From the NCBI GenBank assembly GCA_963850895.1, contig CAWKNK010000011.1, forward strand, positions 117,841-181,840: 64,000 nt of DNA, read 5' to 3'. The notes under the pieces are model-generated. The model worked only from the letters and a program-made list of their open reading frames with translations. It was not told where the DNA came from and did no database searches. The position numbers and the translations under genes were made by a program. How positions within the stretch are numbered: the first letter of the stretch is position 1; each line of letters starts with the position of its first letter. Of the stretch, positions 1,741 through 5,010 are shown piece by piece. This stretch comes from an uncultured Actinomycetota bacterium. GTDB lineage: Bacteria > Actinomycetota > Actinomycetes > Mycobacteriales > Mycobacteriaceae.

Positions 1741-2640
1741 TTAGCGCCCGAGCACCGCGCTGCTGTAGGTCACATCGGCGAAGGCTTGGGCGACCTCGTC
1801 GTCGGCGTAGACAAAGCCGTTGGCCGCGTGCAGTTCCGCGACGGTCTGCGACGAAGTCCGCCAGCCGCGCCGGCTCAGGTGGTCGACGATGTGGCTGCGT
1901 TCGCCGTGATAGACGAGGTCGTTGAAGTCAACCTCGAACCCGAGCTCGCTCATCCGATCGTGGTGCGCCCGCCAGCGCGGGTCGGCGAAAATGGCGGTGT
2001 CAGGCACGAAGTCGAAGGCCAGGCGGCTGCCCGGGGCGCTCAAGGCGGTGATGTTGTCGAACAGCGCGTCCTGGGCCGCCTCCGGCAGGTACACCAATAG
2101 GCCCTCGGCACTCCACACCGACGGAGCCTGCGGATCGAATCCGGCATCGCGCAGCGCCGTGGCCCAATCGTCGCGCAGGTCGACGGCGACGGTGCGCCGC
2201 TCGGCGGTCGGCGCGGCACCCAGATCGTCGAGGGTCAGGGTCTTGAACTCGATCACCTCCGGCATGTCGACCTCGTAGACGACCGTGCCCGCCGGCCACG
2301 GCAGGCGGTAGGCGCGCGCGTCAAGCCCCGACGCGAGGATCACCGCCTGGCCAATGCCGCTCCGCGTTGCTTCCAGGAAGAAGTCATCGTAAAACCTTGT
2401 GCGACATGCCATCCCCCGCGCCATTCGGTGCGGATCGAACTCGGAAGGCCCGCCGACGGGGATTTCGCCGTTCACCAGCCGGACGTAGACGTCGATCCCG
2501 GCGGCGCGCACCAGCGGGGCCGCGTACGGGTCGTCGATCAACTTCGCGTCGGAGGACAGGGCCCGCTGGGCCGCGACCATCGTCGCCGTCGCCCCCACGC
2601 TCGTCGCCAGATCCCAACGATCACGATCGGTGCGCGCCAT
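1741..2640 (-). CDS. Mycobacterial SAM-dependent methyltransferase (Rv0830-like)
   Basis: [20 protein letters not shown] start, [16 protein letters not shown] and [10 protein letters not shown] motifs. Confidence 0.92.
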
Positions 2641-2731: not shown

Positions 2732-3232
2732 GTGACCGACTTCGCCCAGCGGACGATCGACCTGGCACGCAGAAACGTCGCGGAGGGCGGGCGCCCGTTC
2801 GCGACGGTGATCGTCAACGACGGCGAAGTCCTCGCCGAGAGCGCCAACAAGGTCGCCCAGACGAACGACCCGACCGCCCACGCGGAAATCCTGGCCATCC
2901 GCGAGGCGTGCATGAAGCTGGGCACCGAGCACCTCGTCGGCAGCACGATTTACGTGATGGCGCATCCGAGCCCGATGTGCCTGGGCTCGCTGTACTACTG
3001 CTCACCCAAGGAAGTCGTCTTCCTGATCACCCGCGAGGCCTACGAGCAGTACTACCTCGACGACCGCAAGTACTTCGAGGTGTCCACCTTCTACGACGAA
3101 TTCGCCAAGAGCTGGGATCAGCGGCGCCTGCCCATGCGCTACCAACCTCAAGACGGTGCGGCGGAGGTCTACCGGTTCTGGAACGAGCGCAACGGCGGCC
3201 AGCGCCGGTCGACGGTCGTCCCGCCGGCCTAA
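2732..3232 (+). CDS. Nucleoside/guanine deaminase family (Rv0828c-like), with PSxxC in place of PCxxC
   Basis: DPTAHAE motif present; second motif reads HPSPMC. Confidence 0.85.
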   Translation: MTDFAQRTIDLARRNVAEGGRPFATVIVNDGEVLAESANKVAQTNDPTAHAEILAIREACMKLGTEHLVGSTIYVMAHPSPMCLGSLYYCSPKEVVFLITREAYEQYYLDDRKYFEVSTFYDEFAKSWDQRRLPMRYQPQDGAAEVYRFWNERNGGQRRSTVVPPA

Positions 3233-3268
3233 GAAACACCCATTGGCAGCGGCCGCCGACCTTGATTA

Positions 3269-3292
3269 CTATTTGCGTATGCATGCAGATAA
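3269..3292. promoter_or_regulatory. Putative KmtR operator overlapping the kmtR start codon
   Basis: CTATTTGCGT-atgc-ATGCAGATAA, 7 of 10 arm positions complementary; ArsR/SmtB repressors bind palindromes at their own promoters. Confidence 0.6.
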
Positions 3293-3686
3293 CAGCGGAG
3301 GCCGGTTGCCCGACGACCAGGCGAGTCTGGTGGTCGAGGTCTTCCGAATGCTGGCCGACGTGACCCGCGTGCAGGTGCTGTGGTCACTGACCGACCGCGA
3401 GATGTCGGTCAACGAACTCGCCGAGCACGTGGGTAAGCCGGCACCGTCGGTCTCACAACACCTGGCGAAGCTGCGGATGGCGCGCCTGGTCCGCACCCGC
3501 CGGGAGGGGACCACCATCTTCTACAGCCTCGAGAACGACCACGTCCGTCAGCTCGTCACCGACGCGGTCTTCAACGCCGAGCACGCCGGCCCGGGCGTGC
3601 CCGGTCATCACCGCAGGGATGGCGGACTGAAGGCGGTCGCCGAATCGACGGCCCCGCCGGACCGTCGGCACAGCGGCACCAAGTGA
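3279..3686 (+). CDS. kmtR: ArsR/SmtB Ni/Co-sensing repressor KmtR (Rv0827c-like)
   Basis: LPDDQASLVVEVFRMLAD...SVSQHLAKLRMARLV...NAEHAGPGVPGHH. Confidence 0.9.
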   Translation: MHADNSGGRLPDDQASLVVEVFRMLADVTRVQVLWSLTDREMSVNELAEHVGKPAPSVSQHLAKLRMARLVRTRREGTTIFYSLENDHVRQLVTDAVFNAEHAGPGVPGHHRRDGGLKAVAESTAPPDRRHSGTK

Positions 3687-3730
3687 ATAGGGAATCGACA
3701 CAGCGCATTTGACACAAGGAGACGACACCG

Positions 3731-3934
3731 ATGACCGAGCAGCACACCCATGACGCGCCCCACGCGCACGAACACGAGCACGGCGACGTCACCCACGCTC
3801 ACGCGCACACCGCGCACGAGCATGACCACGTCCAGCACGAGCACCCCCACAGCCACGCCGACGGGACCGAGCACAGCCATCAGCACGTGCACCAGGCGGG
3901 CCTGGAGGACGTTCACGGTCACGCTCACGCATAG
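3731..3934 (+). CDS. 67-aa His-rich putative metal-binding protein
   Basis: 23 His in 67 aa, mostly HxH spacing; AAGGAG RBS at 3716; no TM segment. Confidence 0.8.
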   Translation: MTEQHTHDAPHAHEHEHGDVTHAHAHTAHEHDHVQHEHPHSHADGTEHSHQHVHQAGLEDVHGHAHA

Positions 3935-3949
3935 CGCAGGCGGCGCGGC

Positions 3950-5010
3950 TCAGGAGACCGCCGGGCAGTAATGCTTCGGGTCGCCGCGCTCGTCCACCGG
4001 CGGCAGGTTGCGCGCCGGCGTCTGCACCAGCGGCGTATCGGCGGCGATTCGCCCGGCGGCGCGGTCGAAGCCCGCCCGGGCCCGCGGATGTTTACGGAAT
4101 CGGCTCGGCACGAAGACGAAAACCCCGCGAACGATGTCGCCGAAGCGGCGGTGTAACCACTCGTCGCGCCGCGACCACCGGTAACCCATCAACTCGCGAA
4201 CGGGGGGGTCGTACAGACCCACGGTCACCCAAACGAAGAACGGCGCGAGGAGTTTGCGCTGCGCGGCCCACAACCACTCCGGAAGCCATTGCGCGAACGG
4301 CGGTTTGGGGAGCTCGGTGAGGTCGAGCACGGCGCGAGCGGCGAAGTTGTCCTCTAGCACGTTGCGGCACATGTGATCCCAATAGACTCTCGAATTCCTC
4401 CCACGAGGCGGGGACGGGCCGCATGCTCATGCCATACATCCGGTACCAATCGACGTGTTCGTCGAACAGCTGGCGTTTCTGCGCTTCGGTCAGCCCGCCG
4501 CAGAACCGCTCCGCCACATGAATGGTGCCGACGAAGAAGGTGGCGTGGGCCCAGTAGAAGACATCGGGATTCAGACGCGTGGTAGCGGCGGCCCTGTTCG
4601 TCGACACCCTTGATGTCGGTGTGGTAGTCGCGCACTTCGGTGCCGGTGACCGGGGCGCGGTCACCGTCGAAGACCACTCCACCGATCGGGTACAAGGAGC
4701 GCAGCAGACGCTGCCAGCGCTCAATGAAGAACGTCGAGTGGTCGATGACGGCCGCGCCCAGTTGGGGGTGCATGTTCTGCATGGATCCGGCCCACGGACC
4801 CTGCAGCATGCCGCGCCAATCCCCGAAATACCGCCAGGTCAGCGACTCGGGCCCCAACGGGAGGGGTGGCGCGTCGTATCCCATGGGCGACACCGGGCAG
4901 CCGCCGGCCACACCATTCGATTTGTCTGTCGGATCCTGGGCGGCGGTGGTCGAATCGCCGCGCGCGACGTCGCTGGTCAGCGGGCCCGGTCCGGACGTAT
5001 GTTGAGTCAC
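3950..5010 (-). CDS. Oxygenase MpaB/DUF2236 family (Rv0826-like), two apparent frameshifts (~4575, ~4385)
   Basis: LGPESLTWRYFGDWRG, LNPDVFYWAHATF and MCRNVLEDNFAARAVLDL segments lie in three successive frames. Confidence 0.85.

Follow-up and report, generated by a model that had tools for sequence, protein, structure and literature searches.

The 64,000-nucleotide (nt) stretch of DNA analysed here (the window, part of contig CAWKNK010000011.1) comes from an uncultured member of the Mycobacteriaceae, a slow-growing Mycobacterium with a genome of 5.9 Mb; its G+C content is 67%. Directly downstream of the gene for the nickel/cobalt sensor KmtR, the window contains a small open reading frame (ORF), here called hrp (a working name, for His-rich protein). 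Judged by its evolution across the genus, hrp is a protein-coding gene, and its product probably serves as a KmtR-controlled cytosolic buffer or holdase that would bind Ni(II) and Co(II) and be induced by an excess of these metals. An earlier note on this DNA had proposed that metal releases KmtR and thereby induces a His-based chelator, which is, on the comparative evidence laid out below, the best-supported reading of the locus.

The hrp gene and its product

The predicted protein, Hrp (MTEQHTHDAPHAHEHEHGDVTHAHAHTAHEHDHVQHEHPHSHADGTEHSHQHVHQAGLEDVHGHAHA; 67 codons, positions 3731-3934), contains 23 His residues (34%) and 12 Asp or Glu residues and is devoid of Cys, Lys, Arg and aromatic residues. 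Its His residues follow a strict HxH pattern, with every second residue being His over long stretches, and are never adjacent to each other. The non-His motifs comprise P10, G18, DGTEH and HVHQxGLE, and the protein has a predicted isoelectric point of 5.96, with a charge of about -10 at pH 7. Hydropathy reaches a maximum of only -0.9 (Kyte-Doolittle scale, 19-residue window), and the sequence includes a single Leu and four Val residues. Hrp lacks a transmembrane segment and so is predicted to be a soluble cytosolic protein. The soluble protein of 67 amino acids (aa) with 23 His residues described in the earlier note is thereby confirmed (ORF 3731..3934 on the plus strand), as are its own AAGGAG ribosome-binding site (3716-3721, 9 nt ahead of the ATG) and its position on the same strand as kmtR, whose stop codon lies 44 nt before the hrp ATG. 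The same note had warned that any transporter-type label would be wrong; the absence of a transmembrane segment bears this out, but the warning itself is moot, since hrp has never been annotated and thus has no label that could be wrong.

A six-frame search of 400 genomes of the genus detected hrp in 135 of them, nearly always without an internal stop codon and with identities down to ~55%, and no hrp gene was found in 24 genomes representing other families within the order. When 95 distinct orthologues were aligned by codon, the summed column entropies at codon positions 1, 2 and 3 amounted to 28.5, 24.4 and 64.1, respectively, and the median pairwise ratio of nonsynonymous to synonymous substitution rates (dN/dS) was 0.155, with a median dS of 0.96. 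The His columns contain CAC or CAT in 2180 of 2184 codons, and since these codons drift while the encoded residue stays the same, the His residues are maintained by selection. In A1, a protein alignment of 71 sequences, 22 His columns are invariant and 17 further columns are conserved to at least 90%, among others Pro10, Glu14, His17, Thr27, Val34, Asp44-Gly45-Thr46-Glu47, Val53, Gln55, Gly57-Leu58-Glu59 and His64. Cys does not occur in any of the 95 family members. Moreover, 85 of 94 distinct contexts retain the ATG and the core of the Shine-Dalgarno sequence, and insertions and deletions among the orthologues come in multiples of three.

An open frame alone proves little at this locus because CAC-rich DNA stays open in several frames, and the antisense frames are indeed free of stop codons in ~60 of the 95 orthologues. 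This paucity of stop codons, together with the fact that no gene caller predicted hrp, would also fit a CAC-rich 3' untranslated tail of kmtR that stays open by chance. However, the low dN/dS value, a wobble pattern confined to the His frame, the conserved start codon and Shine-Dalgarno sequence, the indels in threes and the persistence of an open frame in homologues with as little as 55% identity make an untranslated ORF scarcely credible. The overlapping frames, a Val-rich antisense ORF (3608-3928) and an ORF in the Thr frame (3750-3971), were rejected as genes in their own right because the wobble pattern fits the His frame only. Likewise rejected were a leader peptide of the type found in His operons, because no same-strand gene follows downstream, and a precursor of a ribosomally synthesized and post-translationally modified peptide or of a metallophore, because tailoring genes are missing nearby. 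The same applies to a recent origin of hrp as a remnant of the His-rich 5' part of the metal exporter gene cdf (see below), because distant homologues with the non-His HQxGLE motif predate the genus. Two loci (L058:3401-3529 and L085:3411-3551) carry shortened versions of hrp, coding for 42 and 46 aa, that arose through in-frame internal deletions, which shows that this repeat-like gene tolerates the loss of modules.

Linkage to kmtR and the predicted operator

The 135-aa regulator encoded upstream of hrp contains an HTH_5 domain (PF01022; 1.9e-13) and matches the family model NF033788 (2.5e-27), with a score of 94.5 bits against a cut-off of 55. Its translation from position 3279 includes His88, Glu101, His102, His110 and His111, all of the residues that Campbell et al. 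reportedly identified in 2007 as the sensory ligands of KmtR from M. tuberculosis. Orthologues in named Mycobacterium species are 81-93% identical, and kmtR was found in 299 of the 400 genomes of the genus. The earlier note had already identified the regulator as KmtR. This assignment as a KmtR orthologue is supported by the ArsR-type helix-turn-helix domain, the reported ligand residues, a candidate operator that is also present at a gene for a cation diffusion facilitator (CDF) and the expected synteny, with neighbouring genes matching those of the Rv0826-Rv0830 region in strain H37Rv. A collection of ~15 billion predicted proteins does not contain the 135-aa sequence that results from a start at the conserved ATG (3279), suggesting that the deposited kmtR annotation probably uses another start. 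For M. tuberculosis, repression of a CDF exporter by KmtR and the release of this sensor by Ni(II) and Co(II) have been reported, with KmtR responding more sensitively to metal than the second sensor, NmtR (PMC7055735, PMC7689651).

The synteny survey that had been suggested along with the initial description of the gene revealed a tight association between hrp and kmtR. Among the 80 closest kmtR loci, taken from named genomes and metagenome-assembled genomes, with M. paraffinicum, M. scrofulaceum and M. nebraskense as the closest named species, 77 have hrp directly after kmtR on the same strand, in two cases in a form shortened in frame. In these loci, the gene is located between kmtR and a convergent gene of the DUF2236 family, and all strong hrp matches whose flanks were read adjoin kmtR. 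The gap between the two genes has a median length of 37 nt, shrinks to 20 nt or less in 29 of 94 contexts and is replaced by an ATGA overlap in seven of the 94; given this variable length, there is no room for a conserved separate hrp promoter. At one locus (L117:1380-1701), the kmtR coding sequence has been deleted, such that the promoter and operator lie ~60 nt ahead of an intact hrp gene of 67 codons, and the respective genome carries a second kmtR gene elsewhere. These findings support the notion that hrp sits in the kmtR transcription unit, forming a putative two-gene operon (3243-3934) whose members would be co-transcribed.

The interval 3100-4100 contains a single promoter-like site, compared with 0.1 sites expected from shuffled sequences. 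This site lies upstream of kmtR (3243-3272), and its two boxes (TTGGCA/TTGACA and TAnTAT) show conservation throughout 96 distinct upstream regions of the genus. Because the A of the kmtR start codon (3279) follows the -10 box at a distance of 7 nt, the kmtR-hrp mRNA is probably leaderless. The palindrome over the kmtR start that had been noted previously (TGCATGCA, 3280-3287) is present and overlaps the ATG. Taken alone, an 8-bp palindrome would be chance; here it forms the core of a longer, 22-bp inverted repeat, TATTTGC-GTATGCAT-GCAGATA (3270-3291), which reads TATTTGCGTATGCATGCAGATA in the window and conforms to the consensus TAT(C/T)TGCGTATGCATGCAG(A/G)TA, with more than 90% column conservation in an alignment of the 96 upstream regions. 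A repeat search of the window did not report this element, because its arms contain one mismatch and offer no exact 6-nt seed, and it was instead defined from the multi-genome alignment.

The 22-bp element occurs exactly twice in the 5.9-Mb genome, once at kmtR and once on another contig (C27:318654). The second copy (TATCTGCGTATGCATGCAGGTA) has the same orientation and is located 10 bp upstream of a 335-aa gene, in the region C27:317636-318675. The product of this gene matches Cation_efflux (2.6e-41) and ZT_dimer (6e-14) and is a CDF exporter whose N-terminal tail (GHGHDHHHEPGHEHAHG) is rich in His. A second relative likewise has two sites, and a reversed control pattern did not produce any match in 41 genomes. 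The conservation of the element could be partly due to its coding content (Met-His-Ala-Asp), but a purely coding origin is argued against by the second genomic copy, which precedes the CDF gene. The inverted repeat is thus best described as a candidate KmtR operator. From this pair of sites and the reported repression of the CDF exporter by KmtR, the regulon in this genome would comprise kmtR-hrp and cdf. Elsewhere in the same genome, two perfect 7-8-7 palindromes of similar build, TATATGC-N8-GCATATA (C22:45114) and TATGTGC-N8-GCACATA (C11:266785), represent possible operators of other ArsR-type regulators.

Genomes without hrp reveal what else can occupy its place. In 14 of 20 kmtR loci sampled from such genomes (L158-L164, L166-L172), kmtR is followed, with an ATGA overlap, by a CDF exporter gene whose product is 74-80% identical to the CDF protein of the window genome and also has a His-rich N-terminal tail; the two genes thus form a translationally coupled operon. 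In another five loci, the convergent DUF2236 gene comes at once after kmtR. One of these five, L155, retains traces of the Shine-Dalgarno region of hrp, indicating that hrp was lost by deletion. In the remaining locus (L165), kmtR is followed by something else. The genus thus displays three layouts: kmtR followed by cdf, kmtR followed by hrp (with cdf located elsewhere behind an operator of its own), and kmtR without either gene. By its placement, hrp sits in what appears to be the effector position of a Ni/Co resistance operon. Its carriers include the M. avium-complex relatives M. colombiense, M. arosiense and M. vulneris as well as other non-tuberculous species.

The features of the locus are listed in Table 1. 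The DUF2236 gene of the window is spread over three reading frames, with single-base frameshifts near positions 4395 and 4572, and its source annotation covers a 140-aa C-terminal piece only. Orthologues at three other loci (L013, L015 and L025) are unbroken and code for 333-363 aa, so the split gene is either a pseudogene or the product of assembly errors. Further upstream, a tRNA cluster (1233-1712) combines three minus-strand genes, for tRNA-Phe, tRNA-Asp and tRNA-Glu, with a plus-strand gene for tRNA-Lys.

Table 1. Genes and predicted control elements around hrp (positions within the window)
Feature	Position	Strand	Remarks or basis
LCM-type methyltransferase gene	1741-2640	-	
Cytidine-deaminase-fold gene	2732-3232	+	
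Predicted sigma-A-type promoter of the kmtR-hrp unit	3243..3272	+	-35 TTGGCA, 18-nt spacer, -10 TACTAT
Candidate KmtR operator	3270..3291	+	7-8-7 inverted repeat over -10 box, predicted transcription start and kmtR ATG
kmtR, 135-aa ArsR/SmtB-family Ni(II)/Co(II) sensor-repressor orthologue	3279..3686	+	Domain matches, synteny
Shine-Dalgarno sequence AAGGAG of hrp, 9 nt ahead of ATG	3716..3721	+	Read from sequence
hrp (working name, His-rich protein), 67 aa, 7.5 kDa	3731..3934	+	ORF, composition, selection, synteny
MpaB/DUF2236 gene (Rv0826-like), convergent, ends at 3950	3950-4890	-	

Absence from annotation and distant relatives

Despite its conservation, the Hrp family is nearly invisible in databases. 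Neither the exact Hrp sequence nor nine orthologues (10 sequences in total), chosen from loci L013-L083, which include DSM strains of M. paraffinicum, M. nebraskense, M. arosiense, M. palustre, M. fragae and M. kyorinense, were found in the collection of ~15 billion predicted proteins. The antisense and Thr-frame ORFs were likewise absent; the fragment of the DUF2236 protein from the same genome is present in this collection (sources NCBI and ENA). A profile search of 1.84 billion cluster representatives returned 44 matches at E <= 1e-3, none of them below 1e-30. At least five of the seven best matches are frameshift chimeras, which begin like Hrp and then continue in another frame, and further matches lower in the list are N-terminally over-extended calls; all of the matches that were read are HxH-type relatives. 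A word-indexed homologue search retrieved only one frameshifted chimera (P0001). Evidently, gene finders reject the composition of Hrp. Profile searches with Hrp gave no match in Pfam, NCBIfam or the PDB, and the region 3000-4200 had none in Rfam. In the papers searched, there is no account of a His-rich gene beside kmtR/Rv0827c. Accordingly, hrp would constitute a new addition to the KmtR regulon, whose members kmtR and cdf are already published in the literature searched.

Beyond the genus, the A1 profile detected a homologue in four of ~380 genomes from other genera of the class, and the representative library contains both stand-alone and fused forms of Hrp, which have the non-His motif H-V-H-Q/E-x-G-L-E-D/E in common. 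Several of these relatives neighbour NicO genes. In one case, NicO is followed by a fusion of a Fur-family protein with Hrp, with hypF nearby (L130); in another, hypF and NicO precede a Fur-Hrp fragment (L139). A third locus (L132), beside genes for a B12-dependent methylmalonyl-CoA mutase and MeaB, has a divergent NicO gene, then an ArsR gene and then an Hrp-Fur fusion, and in a fourth (L137) Hrp comes after NicO genes. The cobalt-transporter genes CbtA/CbtB lie 1.2 kb from Hrp at L135. Other relatives are associated with regulators: an Hrp gene follows a Fur gene with a stop/start overlap (ATGA) at L138, Hrp is convergent with a Fur-family gene at L136 and divergent from an ArsR gene at L125, ArsR and Hrp are joined in a single ORF in P0028, and fusions with Fur have the order Fur-Hrp (P0039, P0037) or Hrp-Fur (P0050). 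In total, the distant contexts include four cases with NicO (two of them with hypF), one with CbtA/CbtB, five with an adjacent or fused Fur-family gene and three with ArsR, and three short contigs were uninformative. The recurring transporter and metalloregulator partners support Ni and Co as the metals concerned, and the range of contexts shows the module in apparent use with importers (Nur-like contexts) and exporters alike.

The two homologues beside hypF and NicO (L130, L139) would also suit a nickel store or delivery chaperone for nickel enzymes, such as urease or [NiFe]-hydrogenase, rather than a resistance factor. Hrp would then be comparable to Hpn/Hpn-2 or to the segments rich in His that occur in HypB and UreE, and Hpn does serve both storage and detoxification (PMC3177205). 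However, the mycobacterial hrp genes would be under the control of an efflux-type derepressor and occupy the slot that is held elsewhere by a CDF exporter, and there are no urease or hydrogenase genes nearby in the window, so such a role seems unlikely.

Proposed function and relation to known systems

The favoured mechanism, in which Hrp acts as an inducible metal buffer, can be outlined as follows. KmtR would bind the 22-bp repeat that spans its own -10 box, transcription start and ATG as well as the near-identical site at the unlinked CDF exporter gene. A rise in the cytosolic level of Ni(II) or Co(II) would take KmtR off the DNA and allow the transcription of both kmtR-hrp and cdf. Translation of hrp from its own AAGGAG sequence would yield a 7.5-kDa, acidic and Cys-free protein that may bind several Ni or Co ions, and possibly Zn, through its imidazoles, with the help of Glu and Asp residues. 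Hrp would then act as a cytosolic buffer during metal export by the CDF pump. Since Hrp would be made together with the repressor, this arrangement implies a negative feedback, in which buffering should help to re-set KmtR. It is also tempting to speculate that Hrp may hand metal to the His-rich N-terminal tail of the CDF pump, a transfer that is conceivable because the PHAHEHEHG-type motif of Hrp resembles the sequence PGHEHAHG in this tail.

Structural predictions suggest how metal binding could be achieved. An AlphaFold2 model based on the 71-sequence alignment comprises five beta-strands (residues 2-7, 11-17, 20-26, 29-41 and 47-56), and a search with Foldseek against the PDB returned no neighbour of this fold (best E-value 1.1). 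In a strand of the type HxHxH, all His residues point to the same side, and it is therefore plausible that ions are bound between the strands of a sheet lined with His. The metal-free protein lacks a hydrophobic core and is therefore probably disordered, folding or oligomerizing on contact with metal, and the metal-bound state would probably be a His-faced beta-meander.

Several observations weigh against Hrp as a nickel/cobalt buffer. The structural model is of moderate confidence, with a mean predicted local distance difference test score (pLDDT) of 66 and a predicted template-modelling score (pTM) of 0.30, and the metal preference of the protein is not readable from its sequence. About half of the kmtR-positive mycobacteria lack hrp, some of them through a clean deletion, which marks the gene as dispensable. 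The fusions with regulators suggest a role nearer to sensing than to bulk storage. In addition, one review lists KmtR as Zn-responsive, too (PMC11672702), and one distant relative (L128) forms an Hrp-like tail on an ATP-binding cassette permease that resembles ZnuB (Zn/Mn-type), as judged by sequence reading rather than by a family scan.

The latter two points, combined with the suitability of His, Glu and Asp ligands for Zn and Cu, would be in line with a protein that is specific for Zn(II) or Cu(II) and not for Ni/Co, in other words an SmtA-like Zn buffer built from His. Such a specificity is, in our view, most unlikely, given that four NicO contexts, one CbtAB context and the link with KmtR all point to Ni and Co and that KmtR derepression in mycobacterial cells has been reported for Ni and Co (PMC7689651).

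The regulator fusions, on the other hand, raise the question of whether Hrp could be a separate module for metal collection or co-sensing. By docking on KmtR, and elsewhere on Fur or ArsR proteins, it would tune the metal threshold or selectivity of the regulator. Such a function would agree with its fusion with, or adjacency to, regulators in P0028, P0039, P0037, P0050 and L138 and the fact that hrp always accompanies the regulator, not the pump, in mycobacteria. It also has a precedent in the SrnR-SrnQ system, in which an ArsR-type protein acts with a small partner encoded next to it (PMC7055735). However, 23 conserved His residues far exceed the need of one sensory site, and KmtR already possesses all of its ligand residues and, in roughly half of the genus, functions in the absence of Hrp. 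Moreover, locus L117 keeps hrp after the deletion of the adjacent kmtR gene, and the fusions could be losses of stop codons or read-through in gene calling. We therefore regard a co-sensor role as possible, albeit rather doubtful.

A broader and equally tentative proposal is that Hrp may define a new family of actinomycete proteins, in which detachable His-rich modules for Ni/Co work by protein-protein hand-over. In one version, Hrp would be a dedicated cytosolic metallochaperone that loads the His-rich N-terminal tail of a CDF exporter; in the other version, it would be a trans-acting sensor tail that sets the thresholds of ArsR and Fur regulators, with which it forms fusion proteins in some species. 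We are not aware of any chaperone reported for a CDF pump.

The closest functional parallel to a His-based nickel buffer is Hpn of Helicobacter pylori. Hpn is characterized by Cys pairs and His runs, whereas Hrp lacks both Cys and poly-His runs and instead has an alternating HxH pattern in combination with the DGTEH and HQxGLE motifs. Hpn/Hpn-2 (~60-70 aa) and Hrp are alike in being small and cytosolic, with more than 30% His and no catalytic domain. Hpn is a His-rich, nickel-induced detoxification and storage protein, and nickel raises the expression of Hpn/Hpn-2 through a nickel sensor (PMC3177205). In contrast to activation by NikR, Hrp would be controlled by an ArsR-type derepressor encoded in its own operon, and its lineage is the Actinomycetes rather than Helicobacter. 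Homology between the two proteins is not apparent from the profile searches of Pfam, NCBIfam and the PDB; no direct alignment with Hpn was made.

The genetic arrangement is reminiscent of the SmtB-SmtA pair of Synechococcus, in which an ArsR/SmtB-type sensor is likewise encoded beside a small metal-sequestering protein, whose gene it derepresses, with the control of Hrp suggested by the gene layout. One of the distant loci (L125) even has the divergent layout of regulator and binder. Whereas SmtA, a metallothionein for Zn and Cd, is rich in Cys and has a fold resembling a zinc finger, Hrp is Cys-free, His/Glu-based and linked to Ni/Co, and the mycobacterial genes are co-directional in one putative operon. 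Given that the profile searches revealed no homology and that Cys is lacking, Hrp does not appear to belong to either the Hpn or the bacterial metallothionein families. Another relation is to the kmtR-cdf system of M. tuberculosis (KmtR/Rv0827c and CDF/Rv2025c), which has the same sensor; in the window genome, the same candidate operator precedes both kmtR and cdf. Compared with the regulon as published in the literature searched, hrp would be an extra, undescribed member, which replaces cdf behind kmtR in about a third of species. A further parallel is provided by SrnR-SrnQ of Streptomyces griseus, which pairs an ArsR-family nickel-responsive regulator with a co-encoded small partner of no known family (PMC7055735).

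Collectively, our analysis adds a third, formerly unseen member to the predicted KmtR nickel/cobalt regulon of mycobacteria and suggests a Cys-free, His-only counterpart to metallothionein-type buffering under the control of an ArsR/SmtB sensor. The underlying concept is familiar; novelty lies in the family, in its having escaped annotation and in the three interchangeable operon layouts. The near absence of a conserved protein family from databases illustrates how small genes of low complexity are lost in annotation. Finally, the three layouts, kmtR-hrp, kmtR-cdf and kmtR alone, make a division of work between the buffering and the efflux of Ni and Co in mycobacteria amenable to testing.

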